Shown here piece by piece: positions 495 to 32,000 of a stretch of 32,000 bases of DNA; within the stretch, counting starts at the first letter, position 1; each line of letters opens with the position of its first letter. The notes under the pieces were generated by a model. That model was not told the DNA's origin and ran no database searches. It saw only the letters and a program-made list of their open reading frames with translations. Both the position numbers and the translations under genes were made by a program. Source of the stretch: Nanopusillaceae archaeon (GTDB lineage: Archaea; Nanobdellota; Nanobdellia; Nanobdellales; Nanobdellaceae); contig JBMFJD010000004.1 in assembly GCA_049974095.1 (NCBI GenBank), positions 35,080 to 67,079 of the forward strand, given 5' to 3'.

Positions 495-1796
495 ATGGAT
501 ATTATTGTTGGGAGATCTTTAGATGATTTGGAAAAATATGGTTTTCTAGGAACAATTTATATTGGAAAAGAATATATAAAAATGGAAAATACATTATCAC
601 TAGCAAATAAAATTTATTTAGATGTTAATTTACCTCATTTAATATTAATTGCCGGAAAAAGAGGACAAGGAAAAAGTTATACCTTAGCATCATTATTCGA
701 AAGTTTATCTTTATTAGAAAAAGATTTATTAGAAAACTTTTCTGGATTAATATTTGATACAATGGGTATATTTTGGACTATGAAATTTCCAAACTATAGA
801 GATGCAGAATTATTAGAAAAATGGGATTTAAAACCACAATCTGTTCATAATGCTAGGATTTTAGTACCTAAAGGATTATTAGACGAATATAGAAAAATAG
901 ATATGCCAATAGATGACGTTTTTGAATTAAATCCAGCAGATTTATCTGGGATAGAATGGGCATTAGCATTTAACTTAGATCCTTCTTCATCAATTGCATT
1001 ATATATACAAAGAATAATAAAGAAAATGAAAGAAAACTCTAATGGATATTCTATACAAGATATAATAAATTATACAGAAAAACTAAATATTGATAGTAAA
1101 ATAAAAAATGCAATAATAACATATTTTGATAATGCAGATAGTTGGGGGTTATTTTCTGAAAAGTCAGAAACAATAAAAAATTTAGTAAAACCTGGATATA
1201 TAAATATTTTAGATATATCTTTATATACTGCAATAACTGGTGGATGGTCTATAAAAAATTTAGTAATAGGGTTGGTTGCTAAAAAAATATTTTACCAAAG
1301 ATTAATATATAGAAAAGTAGAAGAATTAGAAGAAATATATATATCAAAAGAATTAGGAACAAGAAAATTTCCATTAATTTGGATGGCAATTGATGAGGCA
1401 CATGAAGCAATACCAAATGATTCTATTACTCCAGCAACAGAACCTTTAATACAAATAATAAGAGAAGGAAGACAGCCAGGAATTACTTTAGTATTAGCAA
1501 CACAACAACCTGGAAAAATGCATACCGATGTTATAACACAAAGTGATATCGTAATTTCTCATAGACTAACTGCAGAGAATGATTTAAAATCATTAAATGA
1601 AATAATGAAAAACTTTACAGCACAAGATATTGATATTTATATGAATGATAATCTACCAAAAAGAAAAGGTGCTGCGTTGATTTTAGATGATAAATCTGAA
1701 AGAATATATCCTGTACAAATAAAACCAAGATTTTCTTGGCATGGAGGAGAGGATCCTACATTAATTAGAAAAAGATTATGGTTAGAATACAAGTAA
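495..1796 (+). CDS. HerA/FtsK-superfamily (DUF87-like) P-loop ATPase
   Basis: Walker A is IAGKRGQGKSYT (nt ~651-680). Walker B is LIWMAIDEAHE (nt ~1380-1400). LVLATQQPGKMHTDVITQSDIVISHRL is the HerA/VirB4-type sensor region. Only ~50 aa precede the P-loop. Confidence 0.75.
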   Translation: MDIIVGRSLDDLEKYGFLGTIYIGKEYIKMENTLSLANKIYLDVNLPHLILIAGKRGQGKSYTLASLFESLSLLEKDLLENFSGLIFDTMGIFWTMKFPNYRDAELLEKWDLKPQSVHNARILVPKGLLDEYRKIDMPIDDVFELNPADLSGIEWALAFNLDPSSSIALYIQRIIKKMKENSNGYSIQDIINYTEKLNIDSKIKNAIITYFDNADSWGLFSEKSETIKNLVKPGYINILDISLYTAITGGWSIKNLVIGLVAKKIFYQRLIYRKVEELEEIYISKELGTRKFPLIWMAIDEAHEAIPNDSITPATEPLIQIIREGRQPGITLVLATQQPGKMHTDVITQSDIVISHRLTAENDLKSLNEIMKNFTAQDIDIYMNDNLPKRKGAALILDDKSERIYPVQIKPRFSWHGGEDPTLIRKRLWLEYK

Positions 1797-3889
1797 AAGA
1801 AATAGAAGGAGTAATTGCAATAGTAATATTTATTTCATTTTTAACTTTTTATTTATCAGTTTATAGAAGCTATATTTTTAATAAAGTAGATAATTATAAT
1901 CAAATAAACTATTATAATTCGTATATAAAAAATATTTTAAATAATATTGAAGATAGATATTATTTACTTTCATTTAATGTTACAATACCTATCTCTATGT
2001 ACTATCAATGCTTACAAAGTTCTTCAATTTATAATAATTTAATAAATGATAATGCATATAATGATTTTTGTTCGAATTTTCCAATATCTTATCCATTAAA
2101 TATTTCATTCTTAACTTCTTATTCTGGAGTATTAAATAATACAAATAATACTTATCTTGATCCAAATGTTGGTTTATTCTTTTATTTAAATATAGCTAAT
2201 CTAAATTTATATAATCAGCCACAATATGCTTTAGTAAATATTTCAAATCCTTCTGGTCAAAATCTAAATAATTATCCAGTATTTGTTACTTCTCCAGATA
2301 TTTTTTATTGGTTACAAGAAGGATATAATTTAAATGTAACAGATTTAAATGGAAATCAATATTATTTTTGTTATTTAAATTCTCAATTTAACTGTAGTAA
2401 TATAAATAATAATGCTTATGGGATCTGGATTGATTTAAATATTTCTAAAAACCGTTATATAATATTAAATATTTCTCCAATATCAAATAATAATCCATAT
2501 TCAGTAGATGGATCTCAAATATTCCCATTTTACGATCATTTTACATACCAAAATTATCAACAATTTAGTCAAAACTGGTATAATAATACTCCAATAAGCA
2601 TTACTCCTTTGAATCCTGGAGATCAAATTTCTTCTAGCTCTTTTAAAATTTATTCTAAAAAAACAATAAATAAAGGATATTATTTAATATTATTCAATAT
2701 ACAAAATATTAATTCTCTGAGTTCTGGTAATATAAATATTGGAGATAGTTGTAAAATAAGTCTTCAATCAAATAACAAACCATATTTCTATTATTGTAAT
2801 GTTAATGATAATAATGTAGATATATCAATATCTGCTAATGGACGAACATATGCTTATTATTTAATTTTAATTCCATATAATATTATACCACGAATAAATA
2901 TTATCTATCAACCAAATATTACTCAAACATTTAATTTTATTATCGGCCCAAATTTAACATATGATTTTTCTCAATACAACGATTTAATAAAAGGTATAAA
3001 TAGTATCGCAAATAATTACGTAAAATATAAAGAATCTTCTTCTTCCTATGGTTATATAATTTCATCTACTAATTATTTTAATCATTTATTCTATTATTTA
3101 TATACTTCTCAATATGAACCTTCTAATTTAGGTTCTAGATATATATATAATGAATCTTTATCTTTAATTTACTTATATTCTACTCAGAATTTATCTATTA
3201 AAAAAATATTATTTTCTAACACATCTTGGTTCATATTGAATACTCAAAAATATTATAATTCTTCCAATATGATATATTGGAATACTTCTCAAAATAACTA
3301 TGGATTTACTTATAATATTATTAATTTTTATAATCTTCTTTTATCCTATGACAATTCTTTGCTAAACAATTATTTATATTATCCATACGAAAATGGAATA
3401 ATACTTTCCAATTCTAATAATTTTGCTCTTTTATTTACAAATTATTATCCATTAGTTAATATAACATTAAATATAACAGTTAGCAATTCTATGATCTACT
3501 CTAATACTAATTATTATTATCTATTAAATTTAACTTTATTGAATAACTATCCCTATCAAGATTATTATCTATATTTTTATGATAATCCAAATCTAGATAA
3601 AGAAACTGCAAAATATTTAGCATTCTCTACACAAATTCCAATAATGAAAATAAATTATATAGAACCAATAAATATAATAAATATAAATAATCTATTACAA
3701 GAATCTCAAAATTATCCAGATATTTATTTTTATTTCGAAAATGAAAATATTACAATATATAATGGAATAATATATCAAGGAAATGTTGCAAATAATTATC
3801 AATATTCACAAGAATATAGTATTTATGTATTAAATACAACAAATGTAAATGATCTATATAAAGATAATTTAATAATATATATAAAATGA
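1778..3889 (+). CDS. Large N-terminally anchored, N-glycosylation-sequon-rich surface protein (703 aa)
   Basis: The start overlaps the ATPase stop by 19 nt. The N-terminus MVRIQVKEIEG-VIAIVIFISFLTFYLSVY is one hydrophobic helix. The rest is N/Y/S/I-rich with very few K/E/D/R and dozens of N-x-S/T sequons. YALVNISNPSGQNLNNYPVFV...GIWIDLNISKNRYIILNIS followed by IFPFYDHF vaguely resembles DUF2341 plus LamG-type surface domains (low confidence). Confidence 0.6.
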   Translation: MVRIQVKEIEGVIAIVIFISFLTFYLSVYRSYIFNKVDNYNQINYYNSYIKNILNNIEDRYYLLSFNVTIPISMYYQCLQSSSIYNNLINDNAYNDFCSNFPISYPLNISFLTSYSGVLNNTNNTYLDPNVGLFFYLNIANLNLYNQPQYALVNISNPSGQNLNNYPVFVTSPDIFYWLQEGYNLNVTDLNGNQYYFCYLNSQFNCSNINNNAYGIWIDLNISKNRYIILNISPISNNNPYSVDGSQIFPFYDHFTYQNYQQFSQNWYNNTPISITPLNPGDQISSSSFKIYSKKTINKGYYLILFNIQNINSLSSGNINIGDSCKISLQSNNKPYFYYCNVNDNNVDISISANGRTYAYYLILIPYNIIPRINIIYQPNITQTFNFIIGPNLTYDFSQYNDLIKGINSIANNYVKYKESSSSYGYIISSTNYFNHLFYYLYTSQYEPSNLGSRYIYNESLSLIYLYSTQNLSIKKILFSNTSWFILNTQKYYNSSNMIYWNTSQNNYGFTYNIINFYNLLLSYDNSLLNNYLYYPYENGIILSNSNNFALLFTNYYPLVNITLNITVSNSMIYSNTNYYYLLNLTLLNNYPYQDYYLYFYDNPNLDKETAKYLAFSTQIPIMKINYIEPINIININNLLQESQNYPDIYFYFENENITIYNGIIYQGNVANNYQYSQEYSIYVLNTTNVNDLYKDNLIIYIK

Positions 3890-4206
3890 GAAGTTGGATA
3901 ATCCTAGTTGAACTTGCATTTTCAATAATCCTATTAACAGTATTTTTCTTATATATTTATTATTTTAGATCTCAAAATATTATTATTGAAAATTTTGATC
4001 CAAATAATTTAAGATACCTAAATGTATCATGTAATAATAATCTATATACGTATGAAATAATAAATTTAACAAATAATAATATAACAATATGCTATTTTGG
4101 AAGGCAAGCAAATTATACATATATAGAAAATTTAAAACCAATATTTGAATATTTATATTCTGGCCAAAACAATTTTAACCCTTATATTTTAATAGTATTA
4201 TCATGA
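3886..4206 (+). CDS. Small type IV pilin-like (class III signal peptide-like) secreted protein
   Basis: ATGA overlap with the upstream gene. N-terminus MRS-WIILVELAFSIILLTVFF has a short basic leader, a small residue at -1 and a hydrophobic helix containing Glu. The body is sequon-rich with 2 Cys. Confidence 0.5.
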   Translation: MRSWIILVELAFSIILLTVFFLYIYYFRSQNIIIENFDPNNLRYLNVSCNNNLYTYEIINLTNNNITICYFGRQANYTYIENLKPIFEYLYSGQNNFNPYILIVLS

Positions 4207-4643
4207 AATCTCAATATATTTTATTAGCAACAATTTTAATAATTATTTTCATATCTTTTTTAACCTATTATAATTTAAAACCAATAAATAATATTAATGC
4301 AAATTTAATTGGAGAAAATTTCAAAAATGAAATAATATATACATATAAATACTTTGGATACAAATATGTTGGAAATTATACATTTTATTTTGAGAATTAT
4401 ACAAATAATATTGGATATAATTTTTCTTTTATTTGTATTTCATCATATAATTTATCAATACCACAATGCAATGGAAATAATATAAATTGTTGTTATTATT
4501 TTTCTGGATATTTCTATGTAAATTCTTCAATATTAATTTTCTGCAATGAGAACTTTATGATATATAATCCTCCAAATTGGATTTGCTTTTGTTATCAATT
4601 GAATAATTCTAATGAATACTATTCAAATTTCTTTTGTATTTAA
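4203..4643 (+). CDS. Small type IV pilin-like secreted protein, Cys-rich
   Basis: ATGA overlap with the upstream gene. N-terminus is MKS-QYILLATILIIIFISFLTYY. The body is N/Y-rich and charge-poor, with about 10 Cys and many sequons. Confidence 0.5.
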   Translation: MKSQYILLATILIIIFISFLTYYNLKPINNINANLIGENFKNEIIYTYKYFGYKYVGNYTFYFENYTNNIGYNFSFICISSYNLSIPQCNGNNINCCYYFSGYFYVNSSILIFCNENFMIYNPPNWICFCYQLNNSNEYYSNFFCI

Positions 4644-5110
4644 CATTTATATACAAAAAAACCAGATGTTGTTTTATTTAAAATCAGACAAATATCATTT
4701 CCATAAAATGTATAATTATTTGATATTATATTAAAGGGTATTGTATTCATTGTAAAATTATATAAGAAATTATTTGAAGGTAATTGAGTAATATTTAAAT
4801 TTATATATGATGGAACACTCAAAGAATAATTTATTGGAGAAATATATAAACTTTCTATTGTTCCATTAAATATATAAACTGTTAAACCATTCGGAATATT
4901 TTGTTGGAATTTATATGTACATGAATAACATGATCCTATCATATCTATTTGATAATTTAAATCTGTTAATAGATTAACAGTATATTTTAAATTTATTTGT
5001 GCTTGTTGATTCAAAATTGTTAAATGAACATAATATAATACAATAGATAAAACAGATATGGCAAAAGATGTATATATTAAAAATTCAACCCATAAACTTA
5101 TTCCTTTCAT
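4640..5110 (-). CDS. Type IV pilin-like protein with class III signal peptide
   Basis: N-terminus MKG-ISLWVEFLIYTSFAISVLSIVL matches the archaeal KG(Q)-xSxE(Y/F)L class III signal motif. The body is charge-poor and sequon-rich with Cys pairs. The start overlaps the S19e stop (ATGA), and the 3' end overlaps the convergent 4203-4643 gene by 4 nt. Confidence 0.55.
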   Translation of the reverse strand: MKGISLWVEFLIYTSFAISVLSIVLYYVHLTILNQQAQINLKYTVNLLTDLNYQIDMIGSCYSCTYKFQQNIPNGLTVYIFNGTIESLYISPINYSLSVPSYINLNITQLPSNNFLYNFTMNTIPFNIISNNYTFYGNDICLILNKTTSGFFVYKC

Positions 5111-5616
5111 GTAACATTTTTAACATAATCAACTAAATTTTTATTTTCTTTACTTAATTCTTTATATATTTCATTTGCCAATTTATCCATTATACTTTTT
5201 CCATTATTTGTTACAACTCTCCCTCTCTTCTGTCCATCCATTATTTTCATAACAAATCCCGCTTGTTCCAATTGTTGCAAAATTAATCTGATAATTTTTC
5301 CATATCCTCTAACAAATTTTCCAGGTTCCATACCTCTTTTTCTCAATCCCCCATATTTTTTTCTTAATCTAGATATTCCAACAGGCCCTTTTAAATATAC
5401 TTGTCTCAAAATTGAAGCTGCTCTATAATACCACCATCCAGGTCCTCCATTATAATCTACATCTGGAGGAAAATCCGGATTTCTTTCTCTATCTGGTCCT
5501 GTTCTAATAAAAAAAGCCCATGTTGGTGGTTTAATTATTTCTTTATAATTTTCAAATAAATGTTTTGCTAATCTTTCAACATATATTTGTCCAGGTATTT
5601 CTCTTACCGAAACCAT
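5107..5616 (-). CDS. rps19e: 30S ribosomal protein S19e (eS19)
   Basis: GGPGWWYYRAASILRQVYLKGPVGISRLRKKYGG is the eS19 signature. The track start at 5625 is a TTG. The first ATG at 5616 (MVSVREIPG) fits a TATA box at -27. Confidence 0.9.
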   Translation of the reverse strand: MVSVREIPGQIYVERLAKHLFENYKEIIKPPTWAFFIRTGPDRERNPDFPPDVDYNGGPGWWYYRAASILRQVYLKGPVGISRLRKKYGGLRKRGMEPGKFVRGYGKIIRLILQQLEQAGFVMKIMDGQKRGRVVTNNGKSIMDKLANEIYKELSKENKNLVDYVKNVT

Positions 5617-5627
5617 AATATGCAATA

Positions 5628-10054: not shown

Positions 10055-11443
10055 ATGGGTGTTATAAGAGAAAAATTATTAGAATTCTATAAGAAAAATA
10101 ATGAAATTTTAGAAGATATAGTTAAAATTTCACAAAATAGAGAAGTTGGATATTTATTAACAAATGGTTCCTTTGGTCATAGACCATCAAAAATTGAAAC
10201 AAAAGATGATATAATTGAATATATAAAAAAAGGAGCATTATCTTTTCATATTTCAATTGAAAGATGGATAGATTTAAATGTTCTTGAAGAAAATACATCA
10301 AAAAAAGAATTAAGTGAATACAGATTGGGATGGGACTTTATTATTGATATAGATTCTAAATCTTTAGATTTATCTAAAATTACTGCAAGATTAATTGTAG
10401 ATTATTTAAAAGAAAAAAATATTAAACCTGTATATATAAAATATTCTGGAGGAAAAGGATTGCATATTGCAATACCATGGGAAATATTCCCTGAAACAGT
10501 AAATATTGAGAAAAAAGAAGAAATTGTTGAGGAAGAGACAAGAAAATTGTTCCCAGATTTAGCAAGAATATTAGCATTATATATTGCTGAAGAAATTAGA
10601 GAAAAATTAAAAAAATTAATTTTATTAAAATTTAATGAAGAAGAATTGAAAAATTTTGGAATAAATAATATAGAAAAATTTGATCCATATGAAATTGTAG
10701 AAATAGATACTATTTTAATTTCTTCTAGACATCTAATAAGATGCTTATATTCAATAAATGAAAAAACTGGTAACTTATCTGTACCTATAAAAGAAAATTA
10801 TATAGAAAAATTAAAACCTGAAGATGCAAGTTTAGATAATTATTCATATGAAGGGATACCATATTTAACTGAAGATCTTGAAAAAAGAGAATCTAAAGAG
10901 TTTAAAGATCTAATTTACTCTTCATTTTTATGGAAAATAAATAATGAATTAAAAAGTAAACAAATACAACATTTAGCAGAAAAATATAAAAATCAGGAAG
11001 GAATTGAAGAAGCTGAAAAAGATATTGAAGAAATAAAAAAGAAAAAAATAGAAATAGATGAATCTTTATTCCCACCCTGTATTAAAAATATATTAAGTGA
11101 AAATATAGAAGATGGAAGAAAAAGAGCTGTATTTATTTTAATTAACTTTTTAGCAAATATAGGATGGGATTGGGATAAAATAGAAAAATATGTTAAGGAA
11201 TGGAATGATAAATTAAATGAACCATTAAGGGATAGATATATCGAATACCAATTAGAATGGCACAAAAAATTATATAAAGAAAATAAAAGATATTTAACAC
11301 CAAATTGTAATAATGAAATATATTATAAAGATATTGGAATATGTCAACCTGATGAAATATGTTCTTTAATTAAAAATCCATTATCTTATCCAATTAAAAA
11401 GATTAAAAATATAAAATCTTCTCAGGATTCTCAAAATAGTTAA
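10055..11443 (+). CDS. DNA primase, fused PriS catalytic domain plus PriL-like Fe-S C-terminal domain
   Basis: AEP motifs are present: WDFIIDIDSK (DxD), YSGGKGLHIAIPW (SGxGxH) and SSRHLIRCLYSINEKTG. The C-terminal FPPCIKNIL...TPNCNN...GICQPDEIC supplies four Cys, as in the PriL 4Fe-4S domain. Confidence 0.85.
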   Translation: MGVIREKLLEFYKKNNEILEDIVKISQNREVGYLLTNGSFGHRPSKIETKDDIIEYIKKGALSFHISIERWIDLNVLEENTSKKELSEYRLGWDFIIDIDSKSLDLSKITARLIVDYLKEKNIKPVYIKYSGGKGLHIAIPWEIFPETVNIEKKEEIVEEETRKLFPDLARILALYIAEEIREKLKKLILLKFNEEELKNFGINNIEKFDPYEIVEIDTILISSRHLIRCLYSINEKTGNLSVPIKENYIEKLKPEDASLDNYSYEGIPYLTEDLEKRESKEFKDLIYSSFLWKINNELKSKQIQHLAEKYKNQEGIEEAEKDIEEIKKKKIEIDESLFPPCIKNILSENIEDGRKRAVFILINFLANIGWDWDKIEKYVKEWNDKLNEPLRDRYIEYQLEWHKKLYKENKRYLTPNCNNEIYYKDIGICQPDEICSLIKNPLSYPIKKIKNIKSSQDSQNS

Positions 11444-24497: not shown

Positions 24498-26174
24498 ATG
24501 TCAGATATTAAATTAGAAGATTTAAGAAATGAAAAAATTGAGGATAATAAACATAAATTATTGGAAATAAAACTAATATTTGATAATCCAAATATAAGAT
24601 TTGAACAGATATATTTCTGGTTATTAGATTTTATAAGGGATAGCTTAAAAATGAATATAAGTAAATTATCCGATGAATTTACATCTTCTGTAGGTTCTTT
24701 ATTTTTTGGAGAAATGAGTCAAAGAGCAACTGCAGTATTAAATACTGCCAGATCATTGGGAGAATTATTTAATACATTGACAAGATCAATTATATCAATT
24801 TTAAGTGAATATAAACAGATACAAACAAGGATTTTTCTATATGAAAAAATATTATCAAATGATAAAGATGAAGCATATAGTGCATATTTAACATTAAAAG
24901 ATATATGGATAAATAATGTAGATACAAATAGAGGTGCTGCAAGCTTAGCAAATATATCTAGGGGAAGATTAGGATTTGCAACTGCAATAGATTTATTTTA
25001 TATTTCTGATCTAAAAAATGAACTTGAAAAATTAAAAAATAAAGGAATTATTGGAGAATCTCTATTTAATAAAATATTTAACGAACAATATAATATACCA
25101 AGAGATTTAAATGAAATAAAAAATAAAGGAATAATAAATGAACAAATATATAATGTTGTAAATATTAGATTACAAGAATTTTATAACTGGTTAGAAATAA
25201 ATAAGAAATATCTATATGATAGAAATAATTTATTAAAAGCATATTTAAGGCATCAATTGAGCTCTTTATTATATTATGTTGAATTTGCAAAACCATATTT
25301 CAAATTTGCAAGAAAATTATTACAAAATCCTGAACAACCTATAGATGTTGTAAATGCATTAGAAACTGCAATTATTAACTTAACATTATTTTCTACTGGA
25401 AAAGAAACTAATGTAAAAGAGTATAATGAAAAAGAAGAAAAAGAAGGAGAAAAAACATATTTACCATTATATGAAATTGATATAACTGCAAGAGCATTAC
25501 CAACATTAACTGGAAGAGTTGAAGGTACAAGAATGTATTCATTCATTGGAAGAGCTGATATATATTTAAGAGCATATATTGTAGAAAAAAGTGAATATGA
25601 AAATATATTAGTAAATCAGGAAGCAGAGGATTTGTTATATATTACAGGATTAACTGATGAATATTTAAAAGATATGTCTGATATAATTTTGGAGATGTTT
25701 TTATATGATATAATAAAAAATGACGAAAAATTATTAAAATTAGTTGCAAATAGGTCAAATGCAAAACCTGATGAAATAAAAAACAATCCTTATAAAATAA
25801 AATGGACTAAAGAATTAATTGAAGAATTGGAAAAGAATGAAAGAATAAAAAAAGCAATGGGAAGTATAAGATGGATAAAAAAATATTTAGAATCTGAAAA
25901 AAAGGAAGAAAAAAATGAGGAGAAAAAAGAAGAAAAAGAAGGAGAATCCGGAATTCAATTAATATTTCCAAGTTTATCCAATATATTTATGAAAATATTT
26001 GAATTCATTACAACTTTTGGTAAAGACTTAAATGAAATTGGAAAGAATATAAAAAAGAAAAATATAGAAAATGAAAAGAAATATATTATGGATGATTTAA
26101 AGGATAAAACAATAGATACTGCCTGGAAAATTTATATGACATTTAAGAAAACATTTGGTATGTTAAATTATTAA
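24498..26174 (+). CDS. Hypothetical protein (558 aa): helical, two SHOCT-like repeats, K/E-rich linker, amphipathic C-terminus
   Basis: Long ORF with normal cytoplasmic composition and a TATA-like TTTTTAAT about 27 nt upstream. I recognise no family for the N-terminal IRFEQIYFWLLDFIRD...RGAASLANISRGRLGFATAIDLFYI region. Confidence 0.55.
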   Translation: MSDIKLEDLRNEKIEDNKHKLLEIKLIFDNPNIRFEQIYFWLLDFIRDSLKMNISKLSDEFTSSVGSLFFGEMSQRATAVLNTARSLGELFNTLTRSIISILSEYKQIQTRIFLYEKILSNDKDEAYSAYLTLKDIWINNVDTNRGAASLANISRGRLGFATAIDLFYISDLKNELEKLKNKGIIGESLFNKIFNEQYNIPRDLNEIKNKGIINEQIYNVVNIRLQEFYNWLEINKKYLYDRNNLLKAYLRHQLSSLLYYVEFAKPYFKFARKLLQNPEQPIDVVNALETAIINLTLFSTGKETNVKEYNEKEEKEGEKTYLPLYEIDITARALPTLTGRVEGTRMYSFIGRADIYLRAYIVEKSEYENILVNQEAEDLLYITGLTDEYLKDMSDIILEMFLYDIIKNDEKLLKLVANRSNAKPDEIKNNPYKIKWTKELIEELEKNERIKKAMGSIRWIKKYLESEKKEEKNEEKKEEKEGESGIQLIFPSLSNIFMKIFEFITTFGKDLNEIGKNIKKKNIENEKKYIMDDLKDKTIDTAWKIYMTFKKTFGMLNY

Positions 26175-26197
26175 ATTACGAAATTTCATAAATAATT

Positions 26198-28297
26198 ATG
26201 GATAATGATAAAAAGAAATATCCAAATGAATTATTTAACAGACCTATAGGAAGTAGTACAAATCCTGCTATAGCAAATCAGTTACAAGCATTTTTTGAAA
26301 AAGTTAGAGCAGGATATCCTGCTGTAGAAATTCAAACATTTTCATTTTATTCAAGAGAAGGACAAGCAGGATGGGCAGATATACCAAAAATTATTTTTGA
26401 AGAAATTGCAAGATCTGCAAAAATAAATAATGTCCAGTTATCTATACATGCTCCAGAACAGGATTTTCAAATAGCAGGTACTCCAGATAGAGAACTAAAT
26501 ATAAGTAAAGATTATAAAAAAGATAGTGCATATAAGATATCTTCAGTATTAGAAGCTGCAGAAACTATGTCAAAAATATATGGCCAACCAATAAAGGTAA
26601 ATATGCATGCTGGGGATACTACTTTAACAATTTGGGATAAAGATTTTGAAGAAAAAGTAAAAGAAAAATTGATATATGATTATAATTATAGAAAAGAATT
26701 TATAGAAAAATTATATAGAATGGGATTTATTACTGAAGAGCAATATAATATTTTAACTAAAAATAATATTGATAGAGAAACATTAGAAAAAAATATTCCA
26801 TCCTGGGCTTTTGCAAAATCTGAAGGAATATATTATAGAATAAATGGTGATGATATATTTAGTAAATTTGCTTCTCCATTTACAAGAGGAGTCGAAAGAG
26901 CAATTGGAGAAGTTGAAAGAGGAGGAAAAATAAGAAAAGAAGAAATAAAAACAATTGTAGATGAATTATATAATGCAAATGAAAATTTCTGGCTAAATTT
27001 CTTTAGTAGTATAGATAATCAATTTAGTAATTTAGCAATTAAATTTAGAAGAGATATTGAAGGCTTCTTCAATTATTTATTAACCCGAGGGGGATTTGCT
27101 GCTGGATATCCACAAAAAATTGGTGATTTTATAATGTATATTAAATCTTATAGAAATGTTTTGGATAATGTAAAAAATTTTGTAAATACTATAGAAGATA
27201 ACATAAGAAATATTAATGATGAAGAATTAAAAAGAGAAGTCGCAAATAAAATAGAATATTGGAAATCTATATTAAATGAAAATATAAATAAAATAGAAGA
27301 TTATGAAAAAAAATTATCAGAATTAGCTAGATATGCTGAAGAAGAAAAACAATATGATAAAATAGAAAATTATTTATTAAATGAAACAATAAATATTACT
27401 AATAATTTGAAAAATTCATTTGAAATAGTTGGATATTTATTAGATAATTTAAAAAATACAGTATTTTCTGATAGATTTGTACCTGTTGCATATCCTTTCC
27501 AAGAATTAGCAATAGAAAATGGAGCAAAAAATATTGCTGAAGGAATTAAAATGTTAATTGAAAGAGAAAAAATTAAGAATCCAAATTGGTATAAAAATAT
27601 TGTAGAATATTTACCAGATATTGTAATTGAAGAATCCTATCCAGGTGCTCCAGCAACAAGACCAGATATATGGAAAGAATTATTAAATAAAATAAGAGAG
27701 GAATTAAAGAATATTATTGAAAACTATCCTGAATTAAAGAATGAAATAGAAAAAAAGTATGGAAATATAGATAATTATTTAAAAAATAAAATAGGTGCAA
27801 CATTAGATGTTGGACATATAAAGATGTTTGAAAAATATGGATATAAGAAAGAGGATATATTAAAATGGGTTGAAGAAATAAAACCAGAAATAAAACATTT
27901 ACATGTTCATGAAACCCAATGGGGATCAGATACTCATTCACCTTTAGGTTTGGGATGGGATGATGTTATTGCAGAAGAATTAGAAAAAATAAAAGATATA
28001 TTGGGAAATGTTTCTATTGTTCATGAACCTGGATCATGGTATACAAAAGGATTTTCTCAAATGTATGGTTCAGAATATTCATATTATTTGCAAGGAGTTA
28101 ATCCAACAAATGTATATGGTCCATTATATGGAAATGAAGCATTTATAATTTCTCCATATGGAGGTACTCAATTTATTCCTCAATACATACAATATACCCA
28201 ATATTCTCCATTTTCTTATAATATATTTACCCAATTACCATTAGATCTTGGAGGAGGTAAGAAACAACAAACATTTACAGGAGAAAGAATAGATTAA
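26198..28297 (+). CDS. Endonuclease IV-like / xylose-isomerase-like TIM-barrel metalloprotein split by a ~330-aa helical insertion, with a Y/Q/G/P-rich tail
   Basis: Motifs in Endo IV order: QLSIHAPE (H84), KVNMHAGD (H137), IVIEESYPG (E478/479), ATLDVGH (D537, H540), KHLHVHE (H567/569/571), GSDTHSPLGLG (D578, H580), SIVHEPG (E610). These correspond to the nine metal ligands of E. coli Nfo. Residues ~141-470 have no counterpart in Nfo. Confidence 0.55.
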   Translation: MDNDKKKYPNELFNRPIGSSTNPAIANQLQAFFEKVRAGYPAVEIQTFSFYSREGQAGWADIPKIIFEEIARSAKINNVQLSIHAPEQDFQIAGTPDRELNISKDYKKDSAYKISSVLEAAETMSKIYGQPIKVNMHAGDTTLTIWDKDFEEKVKEKLIYDYNYRKEFIEKLYRMGFITEEQYNILTKNNIDRETLEKNIPSWAFAKSEGIYYRINGDDIFSKFASPFTRGVERAIGEVERGGKIRKEEIKTIVDELYNANENFWLNFFSSIDNQFSNLAIKFRRDIEGFFNYLLTRGGFAAGYPQKIGDFIMYIKSYRNVLDNVKNFVNTIEDNIRNINDEELKREVANKIEYWKSILNENINKIEDYEKKLSELARYAEEEKQYDKIENYLLNETINITNNLKNSFEIVGYLLDNLKNTVFSDRFVPVAYPFQELAIENGAKNIAEGIKMLIEREKIKNPNWYKNIVEYLPDIVIEESYPGAPATRPDIWKELLNKIREELKNIIENYPELKNEIEKKYGNIDNYLKNKIGATLDVGHIKMFEKYGYKKEDILKWVEEIKPEIKHLHVHETQWGSDTHSPLGLGWDDVIAEELEKIKDILGNVSIVHEPGSWYTKGFSQMYGSEYSYYLQGVNPTNVYGPLYGNEAFIISPYGGTQFIPQYIQYTQYSPFSYNIFTQLPLDLGGGKKQQTFTGERID

Positions 28298-28329: not shown

Positions 28330-29694
28330 ATGACATTCTTAGATACTCTTGCATCATATTTACCTACAATAGAAAATCCAAAGAAATTATTATCTTTAAG
28401 AGAAAGAATATATAATACATTATTAGTAATTGTTTTATATACAATATTAGCTTCGATACCATTATTTGGAATATCTCCAGAAGTATCTACTAGATTAGAA
28501 GAATTAGCATGGTTATTTGGATCAAATTTAGGCACATTAGCAAGTGTTGGAATTGCTCCACCAGTTGTTGCTGGTATTTTTATGCAATTATTAGTTGGAT
28601 TAAAAATAATTGATATTGATGTATCAAATGATGAAGGAAGAGAAAAGTTTGATATTTATACAAGAGTATTAGCATTTTTCTTTATTATTATAGAAAGTTT
28701 TGTATTAATTCTTAGTGGAAATATTATCCCAAATATATTTCTAGGAATAAATATTTATCTTTTATATTTTATATTATTTATTCAGTTAGTTATTGGTGGA
28801 TTAATAATATTATTATTAGATGATTTTGCATATAAATATGGAATTACTTCAGGAATAAATATAATAATATTAACTGTAATAATTATTGCATTAGCATTAA
28901 GATTATTCAATCCATTATCTCCTCCATCATTAAGTGTTAATTTATTTGCCCAACCTACAGGATATATCCCTTCAGGAATGTTATATTTAACTGAAGGAAA
29001 TATTAATTTAGGATTAGCATTTATATTTGCAGCAATAGCAACATTTGGAATATTAATATTTGCTATATATTTACAATCTTTAAAAGTAGATGTACCTTTA
29101 TTATATCTTAATATAAATGGAGAAATAATAAAATATCCAATACAATTATTATATACATCTGTAATTCCTGCAATATTTATTTATGCATTAATTGTTGAAA
29201 TACAATCTTTATTTGGATTTAATCCAAATAATCCAATTGTTCAATTATTATCTCCCCCAAATGCTATAATAAATATTGGACAATTTGGAATTTCATGGTT
29301 ATATTCTCCATTTAATATTTTCCATATAGTATTTTACTTCCTATTATTTGTAATTGGCGGAATGTTTATATCAAAATTCTGGATATATGCAATTGGTATG
29401 GATCCAAAAAATTTAGCAAATTATTTAACAAACAATCCTTCTTCCCCATTATATATGAGGGATCCAAGAATTGTTGAGGATATGTTAAGAAAATATATTG
29501 ATCCAATTGGATATTTATCAGGATTTTTAATGGGATTACTAGCATCTTTAGGAGATATATTAAGTTCTGCAGTATCTGGTGTTTCAATTTTATTACTAGT
29601 AGTAATTGCAGGACAAATATATAATGATATGAAAAGGCTAAATGCATTACATTTATTCCCATTAATTGGAAAATATTTAGAAAAAAATGCTTGA
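28330..29694 (+). CDS. secY: Preprotein translocase subunit SecY
   Basis: About 10 TM helices. N-terminal PTIENPKKLLSLRERIYNTLLVIVLYTILASIPLFGI and GIAPPVVAGIFMQLLVG are typical SecY/Sec61alpha segments. Confidence 0.9.
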   Translation: MTFLDTLASYLPTIENPKKLLSLRERIYNTLLVIVLYTILASIPLFGISPEVSTRLEELAWLFGSNLGTLASVGIAPPVVAGIFMQLLVGLKIIDIDVSNDEGREKFDIYTRVLAFFFIIIESFVLILSGNIIPNIFLGINIYLLYFILFIQLVIGGLIILLLDDFAYKYGITSGINIIILTVIIIALALRLFNPLSPPSLSVNLFAQPTGYIPSGMLYLTEGNINLGLAFIFAAIATFGILIFAIYLQSLKVDVPLLYLNINGEIIKYPIQLLYTSVIPAIFIYALIVEIQSLFGFNPNNPIVQLLSPPNAIINIGQFGISWLYSPFNIFHIVFYFLLFVIGGMFISKFWIYAIGMDPKNLANYLTNNPSSPLYMRDPRIVEDMLRKYIDPIGYLSGFLMGLLASLGDILSSAVSGVSILLLVVIAGQIYNDMKRLNALHLFPLIGKYLEKNA

Positions 29695-30304
29695 TTCATT
29701 ATTTTTCTATGTTTTATTATTAGTAATTTTTGTTAATATTATAGTAAAAAAAATTGAAAGAAAAAGTGGAATAAAAGAACATACAAAGAAGTTACAGGAA
29801 ATACAGAAAAAATATATAGAAAGCATAAAATCTGGAAAAATTGATGAATTAAGTAAAATGATGGAAGAATTTCAAAAAATATATGGAAAAATAATGAAAC
29901 ATACAATGATTGTAACAATTATTGGAATTTTTATATTAATAATTATTACATTTTTATTCCAAACTGGTTTTTATATTAAATTAGTTGATAATACTACACA
30001 AGTAGTTATTACAAATCCAATATTATATAATCAGGATTTTGTAATATATTATAATAATACTTTTTTAGGATTCTATCATGCAAATAATAATTTAATTATT
30101 TTAAATGGAACATATGAAATAAATAAATTATCTGCTAATGTTATAACAAATAATTTACCATTTTATATATTTGGGATAAATTGGCTAAATCCTTTATTTT
30201 TATATATTATTTTGTATCTATTAATCCAGATAATTCTTTTAATTTTTAATTATATTAGTAGAAGATTTATAAAAAAATCTCAGGAAAGTAATAGAAATGG
30301 CTAA
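29687..30304 (+). CDS. DUF106 / EMC3-TMCO1-like membrane protein (archaeal Oxa1-superfamily insertase candidate) with an extracytoplasmic insertion
   Basis: TM1, then a basic coiled coil (KKLQEIQKKYIESIKSGKIDELSKMMEEFQKIYGKIMK), then further TMs. Its position between secY and L34e is the conserved archaeal slot for DUF106. Confidence 0.45.
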   Translation: MLDSLFFYVLLLVIFVNIIVKKIERKSGIKEHTKKLQEIQKKYIESIKSGKIDELSKMMEEFQKIYGKIMKHTMIVTIIGIFILIIITFLFQTGFYIKLVDNTTQVVITNPILYNQDFVIYYNNTFLGFYHANNNLIILNGTYEINKLSANVITNNLPFYIFGINWLNPLFLYIILYLLIQIILLIFNYISRRFIKKSQESNRNG

Positions 30305-31158: not shown

Positions 31159-31167
31159 TTTTTTATA

Positions 31168-31239
31168 GGGCCCGTAGTCTAGTGGTAGGATTCCAGATTC
31201 GCTATCCGGAGGTCCGGGGTTCGAATCCCCGCGGGTCCT
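31168..31239 (+). tRNA. tRNA-Ala (anticodon CGC), atypical details
   Basis: 72-nt cloverleaf. Acceptor GGGCCCG/CGGGTCC includes the G3:U70 Ala identity pair. Anticodon stem CCAGA/TCCGG has an A:C mismatch. Loop is UUCGCUA. T arm is CGGGG-TTCGAAT-CCCCG. Confidence 0.8.
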
Positions 31240-32000
31240 TTATGATAAAATAAGTAATCCTAACGATAGAGCTAAAGCAAGTAATGGATAATAAATATCT
31301 TGGCTAACTACTAATGAAGAAGATGAAGTAGGATAGTTTACCAAAAAATTATATTGGGCATTTCCTATATAATTATTATTTACATTTACTCCGATTTGTA
31401 AATTTGAAGAACCTACATATAATGGAATTAAAGAAAATGTAATAATAGAAGAATTTCCTGGTTGTAATGAAGGAATATTAATACTATTTATGTTATTTAT
31501 TGATAATCCATTATAAATTATCTCTGGATTATTTGATGGATAATTTAATATTAAATTAATATTATTTATTGTAGTATTTCCTATATTTGTTATATTTAAT
31601 ATTAATTGAAATTCTCCAGATCCTAAATTTAAATTAAATGTATTTCCTATAGGATGTAACTTTATATTTTGATTTACTGGAACCAAATATGCTTGCATTT
31701 GTATTAATCCGTATAAAGTAGTTGTTGCTAAGTTTTGAATTATTTGGGTATAACAGTTCGATGTTCCTGCATTTGTAGATGCACATACTGTTAAATTTGT
31801 ATATGAACTATAAGGTAATGGTAGTATTTTAGAGAAATAATTTGAATTTGGATTTGTTGAATTTATATTATTTCCATTATCAGATACATTTACTGATGTT
31901 ATTATAGATGAATTTGAATATACTGAAATATTTGCTATTATATTACTATTTGTTATATTCAATAAATTAATTGAAATTATTGGTATATTAGTTCCAGGAG
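31240..32000 (-). CDS. Surface protein with C-terminal membrane anchor (5' end outside the window)
   Basis: The frame stays open past the listed TTG start at 31962 to the window edge. It is N/S/T/I-rich with almost no charged residues and many sequons. LILNITNIGNTTINNINLILNYP...IPSLQPGNSSIITFSLIPLYVGSSNLQIGV resembles a CARDB-like Ig fold. The C-terminal YYPLLALALSLGLLILS is a TM anchor. Confidence 0.55.
   Translation of the reverse strand, partial: PGTNIPIISINLLNITNSNIIANISVYSNSSIITSVNVSDNGNNINSTNPNSNYFSKILPLPYSSYTNLTVCASTNAGTSNCYTQIIQNLATTTLYGLIQMQAYLVPVNQNIKLHPIGNTFNLNLGSGEFQLILNITNIGNTTINNINLILNYPSNNPEIIYNGLSINNINSINIPSLQPGNSSIITFSLIPLYVGSSNLQIGVNVNNNYIGNAQYNFLVNYPTSSSSLVVSQDIYYPLLALALSLGLLILS

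Follow-up and report, generated by a model that had tools for sequence, protein, structure and literature searches.

Putative type IV pilus adhesin and pilin-like genes beside a HerA-like ATPase gene in a Nanopusillaceae archaeon

Organization of the locus

Here we describe a five-gene locus in a 32,000-nucleotide (nt) stretch of DNA from a very small, host-dependent Nanopusillaceae archaeon (hereafter the window; GenBank assembly GCA_049974095.1, contig JBMFJD010000004.1, positions 35,080 to 67,079 of the forward strand). The genes encode a HerA-clade ATPase, a large adhesin candidate of a DUF2341 family, and three small pilin-like proteins (Table 1). An earlier note, made from the sequence alone, had read them together as a candidate surface filament or transfer apparatus, with the ATPase as its motor. 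The reading that we favor, and hold to be fairly probable, is that two units with separate functions are juxtaposed: a type IV pilus adhesin and minor-pilin module, and an unrelated HerA-like ATPase. The products of the four genes at 1778-5110 are most likely the tip adhesin of a type IV pilus together with small pilin-like subunits, and they are candidates for a role in host attachment; the ATPase is probably not the motor of these surface proteins.

Table 1. Genes of the locus and the adjoining context gene (aa, amino acids)
Feature	Position in window	Strand	Basis of assignment
HerA-clade ATPase, 433 aa	495-1796	+	Pfam DUF87, AlphaFold/Foldseek
DUF2341-family adhesin candidate, 703 aa	1778-3889	+	class III-like signal, family DUF2341
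Pilin-like small protein, 106 aa	3886-4206	+	N-terminus, orthologs
Pilin-like small protein, 146 aa	4203-4643	+	N-terminus, orthologs
Pilin-like small protein, 156 aa	4640-5110	-	N-terminus, orthologs
Ribosomal protein S19e (rps19e), context gene	5107-5625	-	Pfam Ribosomal_S19e, E 6e-41

The window is a very AT-rich core-genome stretch (G+C ∼23%), dense with genes for ribosomal proteins, tRNA synthetases, primase, SecY and the like. The five open reading frames (ORFs) and their overlaps lie where they were first placed: successive plus-strand genes (495-4643) overlap by 19, 4 and 4 nt, and the 146-aa (+) and 156-aa (-) genes overlap tail-to-tail by 4 nt. A further 4-nt overlap, missed earlier, joins the start of the 156-aa gene to the stop of rps19e and is kept in all Nanopusillaceae-type loci. 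The 156-aa gene is probably co-transcribed with rps19e, and its position behind a ribosomal protein gene means that it could be highly expressed. A tRNA-Gly(TCC) gene (388-458) ends 36 nt upstream of the ATPase start codon.

The overlaps had been taken as the sign of one translationally coupled unit. They single out no functional unit, because overlap is the norm in this genome: it is seen in 17 of the 33 same-strand pairs and 4 of the 6 convergent pairs of neighbors in the window, including unrelated genes (L32e and an unknown gene; M50 peptidase and translin). In relatives, the ATPase gene itself overlaps a MiaB-like gene (locus L117) or HtpX (locus L115). Since overlap is frequent and joins unrelated genes, it marks compaction and probable co-transcription, not shared function.

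The four surface proteins

The four proteins encoded at 1778-5110 each contain one hydrophobic segment, at the N-terminus. They are poor in charged residues (6-10%, compared with 26-28% in the ATPase and S19e, the two cytoplasmic proteins measured) and rich in Asn and Tyr, with conserved Cys and sequons (N-x-S/T). This is the look of the extracellular proteins of an acidophile. The description of the 703-aa protein as single-anchored, charge-poor (9.2% charged residues) and sequon-rich is borne out, with one qualification. The protein does contain 22 sequons, and the density in the four proteins is 31-41 per 1000 residues, but this richness is largely a matter of composition, because Asn accounts for 12-18% of residues and the observed numbers are only 1.3-2.3 times the shuffle mean (P 0.03-0.10 per protein).

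The 703-aa protein has a class III-like junction that had been overlooked (MVRIQVKEIEG↓VIAIVIF, with the arrow at the junction). Its match to the strict FlaFind pattern is EGVIAI, at residue 10; this pattern reportedly, after Szabo and colleagues in 2007, reads [KRDE][GA][ALIFQMVED][ILMVTAS]x3 followed by a hydrophobic stretch near the N-terminus. All 44 homologs compared have E10, at least 90% of them have G11, and the family has four invariant Cys. One homolog, P0174, matches DUF2341 (PF10102) above its cut-off (24.5 bits compared with 23.4, E 3.7e-5, residues 203-253), and this region aligns to residues 207-268 of the window protein via invariant C198, C206, W217, G245 and F249. Large DUF2341 proteins occur in archaeal type IV pilus loci and were proposed to be tip adhesins by analogy with PilY1, while the other class III proteins of these loci were proposed to be minor pilins (Makarova, Koonin and Albers 2016, PMC4858521). 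With its class III-like signal, DUF2341 region and beta-rich domains, the 703-aa protein is predicted to be a large secreted or anchored glycoprotein, a pilus-associated adhesin. An S-layer role was rejected, the proposed S-layer genes being MJ1_0160/0707 and YN1_5000/2560, not YN1_1890.

The N-termini of the three small proteins (MRSWIILVELAF, MKSQYILLATIL and MKGISLWVEFLIY) agree with those quoted in the earlier note, and their orthologs keep K/R-G/S-hydrophobic N-termini, with G, S, A or N at -1. The 106-aa protein (MR[S/G]↓WIILVELAFS) has 2 Cys and 4 sequons, and Glu9 is invariant in its family. The 146-aa protein (MK[S/T/N]↓QYILLAT) has 8 Cys and 6 sequons, and Gln at +1 is invariant in its family. 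The 156-aa protein (M[KR][GS]↓ISLWVEFLIY) has a conserved CxxC motif and two C-terminal Cys; in its family Glu9 (+6 in the helix) is invariant in close orthologs, and 8 of 11 divergent members have Glu or Asp there; the divergent members follow the pattern M-[KR]-[GSAN]-[ILVQ]-[SDTA]-[ILV]-[WLF]-[VIT]-[EDGS]-[FY]-L-[IM]-Y. One homolog of the 156-aa protein with a longer leader keeps the junction (MGGYRG↓LSVFVSYLMY).

The N-terminus is the most conserved part of these proteins. Pairwise identity over the first 30 residues and over the rest is 0.44 and 0.26 in the 156-aa family, 0.49 and 0.31 in the adhesin family, 0.67 and 0.63 in the 146-aa family, and 0.60 and 0.54 in the 106-aa family. A relaxed class III pattern picks out just five of the 45 ORFs of the window: these four and one more. 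Comparison of the four proteins with hhalign finds similarity in the N-terminal helix only; hhalign against the archaellin-like proteins of locus L009 (see below) finds nothing, and profile searches of the PDB with the three small-protein families give nothing meaningful. The earlier reading of the downstream proteins as pilin-like surface proteins, the large one being a plausible adhesin, is upheld.

None of the four surface families was found outside Nanopusillus, Nanobsidianus, Nanobdella, YN1, Nanoclepta and a small number of related lineages. The homolog clusters (54 for the 703-aa, 26 for the 146-aa and 11 for the 156-aa protein) are annotated as hypothetical, without a Pfam domain; named homologs of the 146-aa protein are MJ1_0639 and YN1_1910. 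The locus corresponds to MJ1_0636-0640 and YN1_1880-1920, with tags extrapolated from MJ1_0639, YN1_1890 and YN1_1910. It is mentioned neither in the published survey of Nanobdella surface proteins nor, by locus tag, in other searchable literature.

Gene order in relatives

In ∼30 Nanopusillaceae-type loci the five genes have the same arrangement in every case where both ends can be seen. In metagenomic Nanopusillaceae loci the ATPase is 87-91% identical, the surface proteins 56-82%, and the adhesin 57-61%. The kept order within this group says little, because the whole surrounding region, including FtsZ, SepF, prefoldin and GlnRS, is also syntenic in these genomes. A check of gene order across the phylum, which the earlier note had proposed, thus gives a divided answer: the order is kept in the Nanopusillaceae-related clade, but outside it the genes downstream of the ATPase are not syntenic, a finding that the note itself had listed as speaking against its proposal.

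Two loci from sister lineages have other arrangements. In L115 (GCA_054017035.1, JBPMBW010000009.1, 5881-14220), which has an ATPase 66% identical, HtpX is followed by the genes for the ATPase, the adhesin (541 aa) and proteins of 92 and 130 aa, in this order, and then by two T2SSF genes and T2SSE. The 92-aa protein is homologous to the 106-aa protein of the window and the 130-aa protein to the 146-aa protein. The T2SSF (TadC/FlaJ-like) genes directly adjoin the 130-aa gene, and the gene for the T2SSE (PilB/FlaI-type) ATPase follows. L115 has the appearance of a complete pilus locus in compact form, possibly in the ancestral arrangement. In L009 (9909-11469) an NTPase_1 (THEP1-like) gene comes after the adhesin gene, and then genes for two proteins, each of 146 aa and with an N-terminal helix; the one encoded first, two genes downstream of the adhesin gene, matches Pfam Arch_flagellin (E 1e-8). 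The flanks of the ATPase-adhesin pair in L115 and L009 differ on both sides.

The HerA-like ATPase

The ATPase contains the motifs GKRGQGKS, IDEAH, ATQQPG and ISHRL, all as first reported, and matches Pfam DUF87 (E 6e-10). It has no hydrophobic segment and is cytoplasmic. Its AlphaFold model (predicted local distance difference test score, pLDDT, 90.7) consists of a short N-terminal beta domain of ∼50 residues, a RecA-like core and a helical insert. The best Foldseek matches are HerA of the Thermococcus kodakarensis HerA-NurA complex (9x1m; E 9e-21, template modeling (TM) score 0.62) and HerA of Sulfolobus solfataricus (4d2i), followed by anti-phage HerA proteins; the alignments with 4d2i and 9x1m span 434-464 columns, approximately the full length, at TM ∼0.62. 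A profile of the ATPase family finds HerA proteins in the PDB at E 7e-15 to 1e-9, compared with 0.002 or weaker for FtsK, viral packaging ATPases and coupling proteins. VirB4 and coupling proteins are not among the top structural matches, and score E ≥0.04 by sequence. In Pfam and NCBIfam there is no match to T2SSE, only a P-loop-length match to TIGR01420 (E 0.033). The ATPase is therefore of the HerA class and not of the PilB/FlaI type, as the earlier note had it.

Among the PADLOC models the best match is mads_8 (E 9e-20, nearly full length), which is the best curated match of the ATPase and lies ahead of every PADLOC HerA model (E 6e-16 or weaker). The searchable literature yielded nothing on mad8 and DUF87 in DPANN archaea, including on the role of the mads_8 component. 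An anti-phage HerA system (Sir2-HerA, DUF4297-HerA or MADS) was rejected: none of the four neighboring proteins (703, 106, 146 and 156 aa) matches a PADLOC defense model, the surroundings form no defense island, and the ATPase gene is phylum-wide and sits in housekeeping contexts.

Homologs of the ATPase are present in at least 584 species-level genomes, almost all of Nanoarchaeota, in records labeled Woesearchaeota, Pacearchaeota and similar, with 43-50% identity between orders. We compared the neighborhoods in 80 representative loci, and the Pfam-annotated called genes around the ATPase gene in nine loci. In loci at ≤49% identity, and in L117 (58%), the downstream gene is variable and the neighbors are housekeeping genes. 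Recurrent neighbors include Trm5-like, FEN1, RFC, DnaG, HtpX (15/80) and RPA (7/80); RadA is a neighbor in 2/80. A ∼100-aa acidic, lysine-rich protein without a Pfam match is encoded near the ATPase gene in 15 loci, directly downstream in 9, and could be its partner; it is found in L014, L012, L034, L041, L073 and other Woesearchaeota-type loci. In L003 (8001-12959), L024 and L047, a subgroup of the relatives, genes for RPA, RadA and an A24 prepilin peptidase lie codirectionally downstream of the ATPase gene, an arrangement that hints at a recombination-related context. A general association of the ATPase with pilus genes was rejected, as a T2SSE or A24 gene lies within 7 kb of the ATPase gene in only 4 of the 80 loci, three of which are this one RPA-RadA-A24 arrangement.

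The ATPase is probably an uncharacterized, phylum-wide HerA-clade translocase acting on nucleic acid. An alternative that concerns the ATPase alone, and that we regard as possible though doubtful, is that it is the true HerA of the lineage, acting in the resection of DNA double-strand-break ends. The structural matches to HerA of the HerA-NurA complex are consistent with this role, as are the name HerA given by NCBI to the Nanobdella ortholog and the RPA and RadA neighbors, including those in L003. Against it, the ATPase scores 29-44 bits with the NCBIfam HerA equivalogs, whose cut-offs are 800-970, and so is not a HerA ortholog by NCBI criteria. It is also short (433 aa compared with 500-580 aa for a typical HerA), with a short N-terminal barrel, and its best curated match is a different DUF87-type model, mads_8. 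The adjacency to NurA in relatives that the earlier note had contemplated was not seen either: no NurA, Mre11 or Rad50 domain is present among the called genes of the nine annotated loci, and no recurrent neighbor family in the ∼80 loci resembles these proteins, in surveys that were not dedicated searches for them.

A putative type IV pilus adhesin and pilin module

The evidence for a type IV pilus module at 1778-5110 comes from the adhesin family, which includes DUF2341, a domain known from archaeal type IV pilus loci; from L115, which places homologous genes beside T2SSF and T2SSE; and from the class III-like junctions, which are conserved in proteins whose N-terminal helix is their most conserved part. 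The independence of the ATPase is suggested by its presence in hundreds of genomes with a variable downstream context, by the overlaps that join it to unrelated genes, by its HerA fold, and by the difference in conservation within the metagenomic Nanopusillaceae loci, where the adhesin is much the more divergent of the two. Co-transcription of the ATPase gene with the adhesin gene is then explained by a compact genome that packs unrelated genes together.

From the observed folds, motifs, distribution and gene neighborhoods we infer the following scheme for processing, assembly, adhesion and the substrate of the ATPase. The four genes would form a lineage-specific type IV pilus accessory set, consisting of a DUF2341 adhesin and three pilin-like proteins. 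Each of the four proteins would be inserted into the membrane by its N-terminal hydrophobic helix, and cleaved after the conserved K/R/E-G/S junction by a prepilin-type peptidase. A PilB/FlaI-type ATPase and a TadC/FlaJ platform, encoded elsewhere in the genome, would then extract and polymerize the proteins. The small proteins would prime or build a short fiber or tip complex, on which the adhesin, N-glycosylated and disulfide-bonded, would be exposed and would mediate attachment, probably to the host cell. A more speculative point is that the major subunit may be the 156-aa protein, whose gene is expressed behind rps19e. The HerA-clade ATPase would function separately in the cytoplasm as a hexameric translocase, most likely on nucleic acid.

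Several observations weigh against this scheme. Wherever both genes are visible (∼30 loci), L115 and L009 included, the ATPase-adhesin junction is intact, and no conserved TATA-like element is present at a suitable distance upstream of the adhesin gene, so that no internal promoter is evident. These two facts together leave room for some functional link between the ATPase and the adhesin, with the junction being weak evidence because there is only one rearrangement per side to judge from. The window contains no T2SSE, T2SSF or A24 peptidase gene, in agreement with the earlier statement that it lacks FlaI and FlaJ genes. The N-termini of the 106-, 146- and 156-aa proteins fail the strict FlaFind pattern by one or two positions (RS↓W, KS↓QY and KG↓ISLW). 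No window protein matches a pilin or archaellin model of Pfam or NCBIfam, and the same holds for 11 divergent 156-aa family members, searched at E up to 5. The DUF2341 score of the 703-aa protein itself is insignificant (E 3.1), and its structure model is poor (pLDDT 45.6); the moderately confident part is a beta sandwich with only weak Foldseek matches to carbohydrate-binding modules and jelly rolls, which we take as a hint. Last, Makarova and colleagues detected no prepilin peptidase in two nanoarchaea (PMC4858521).

Alternative readings

For the four surface proteins, an unlikely alternative is that they are ordinary signal-anchored or Sec-secreted envelope glycoproteins, whose N-termini are merely short positive-inside signal anchors. 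The absence of pilin model matches and of pilus genes in the window, the prepilin peptidase reported missing in two nanoarchaea, the departure of three of the four N-termini from strict FlaFind and the Ser or Asn at -1 in many sequences would all fit this view. It leaves aside the DUF2341 domain of the large-protein family, and the homologous genes directly beside T2SSF and T2SSE in L115. It also does not account for the acidic residue that the 106- and 156-aa families conserve within the helix, at position +6, for the junction kept despite a change in leader length, or for the N-terminus being the most conserved part of the proteins. All of these argue for the pilus reading.

HerA/VirB4-type ATPases power pili in conjugation and in the Ced/Ted systems. 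The notion that the HerA-like ATPase here is dedicated to driving a novel surface filament or transfer apparatus made of the adhesin and pilin-like proteins, for example for the uptake of DNA or macromolecules, draws on this precedent, on the invariant ATPase-adhesin adjacency with its overlapping stop and start, and on the lack of an obvious separate promoter signal upstream of the adhesin gene. We consider it improbable, given that the ATPase family occurs in housekeeping neighborhoods in hundreds of genomes without the adhesin family, lacks a membrane segment, has a fold nearest to DNA-repair and anti-phage HerA and not to VirB4, TrwB or FtsK, and lies in L115 near canonical pilus assembly genes that directly adjoin the homologous surface genes; moreover, the overlaps join unrelated genes throughout the genome and around the ATPase gene elsewhere, and the cluster encodes no VirB2-like or VirB6-like protein. 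We give similarly little credence to a variant in which the ATPase acts at the membrane with the adhesin module, for example as a cytoplasmic translocase that would pull in host DNA or another polymer captured by the pilus. The only positive hint of such a hybrid is the ATPase-adhesin junction, invariant across two differently arranged contexts. If true, a combination of a pilus with a HerA motor would be one not described in any organism.

Comparison with known systems

With the pilus reading, the closest relatives of the module are the archaeal DUF2341 pilus loci (clade 1, or Epd-type) of Methanococci, Methanobacteria and Thermococci, which combine a large class III DUF2341 protein with small class III-like proteins (PMC4858521). 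The one T2SSE ATPase and two TadC-like genes of L115 also resemble the clade 1 pili described there. The window differs from these loci in that its surface genes lack adjacent assembly genes, with no EppA/PibD or MinD-type ATPase gene beside them, and its small proteins match no known pilin family and have leaders of only 3 residues, often with Ser or Asn at -1.

A second likeness is to bacterial type IVa pili. In these, the PilY1 tip adhesin and the low-abundance minor pilins are presented at the pilus tip, and the pilin-like proteins (PilV, PilW, PilX and FimU) are encoded together with one large non-pilin adhesin, as at the locus described here. Between PilY1 and the archaeal protein there is no sequence relationship shown beyond DUF2341, and the archaeal protein bears a class III-like N-terminus of its own.

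The ATPase resembles HerA of HerA-NurA complexes (4d2i and 9x1m) in fold and domain order (Foldseek E 1e-19 to 1e-21), in Walker A and B, and in the motifs of the C-terminal core. It differs in being only ∼19% identical and shorter, and in falling below the equivalog cut-offs. Its family has many invariant columns, including a distinctive C-terminal W-H-G-G motif, and no NurA neighbor was recognized in the neighborhoods surveyed as described above. The likeness to Ced/Ted and conjugative type IV secretion systems, on which the earlier note had drawn, is limited to a HerA/VirB4-superfamily ATPase beside small membrane proteins. The small proteins here have a single N-terminal helix and not a VirB2-like hairpin, no polytopic VirB6/CedA-like protein is encoded in the cluster, and the ATPase groups with HerA and not with VirB4 or coupling proteins, so the analogy is abandoned.

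Significance

The proposed system is of a known kind, the archaeal type IV pilus that carries minor pilins and a DUF2341 adhesin, and the families of this locus are new members of it. The finding is useful rather than startling, and a radical framing is unlikely to be right. In Nanobdella, YN1 and YN4, the attachment to the host occurs through an elaborate organelle, and a second kind of surface filament and nanotubes are also described; no genes have yet been assigned to the attachment organelle, the second appendage type or the YN4 nanotubes. The locus (MJ1_0636-0640, YN1_1880-1920) offers concrete candidates for pilus adhesins and subunits in cultivable strains. In addition, the 2016 survey found pilus ATPases in nanoarchaea without identifying the cognate pilins (PMC4858521), a stated gap that the new pilin-like families address. 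The HerA-like ATPase family, uncharacterized, nearly universal in the phylum and with no NurA neighbor recognized in the loci surveyed, merits a study of its own.

Other features of the window

A single 462-aa ORF (10055-11443, +) holds both the small- and large-subunit DNA primase domains, and thus apparently encodes a fused primase. Upstream of SecY, two large ORFs of 558 and 699 aa (24498-28297, +) have no convincing family match, the 699-aa ORF giving only a sub-threshold match to AP_endonuc_2. A tRNA-Ala(CGC) gene (31167-31240) abuts the end of a 240-aa ORF on the opposite strand that has no family match. Overlapping the end of SecY by 8 nt is an ORF for a 205-aa protein (29687-30304, +) that has a hydrophobic helix at its N-terminus and matches no Pfam family; it is the sole further ORF of the window that fits the relaxed class III-like pattern.

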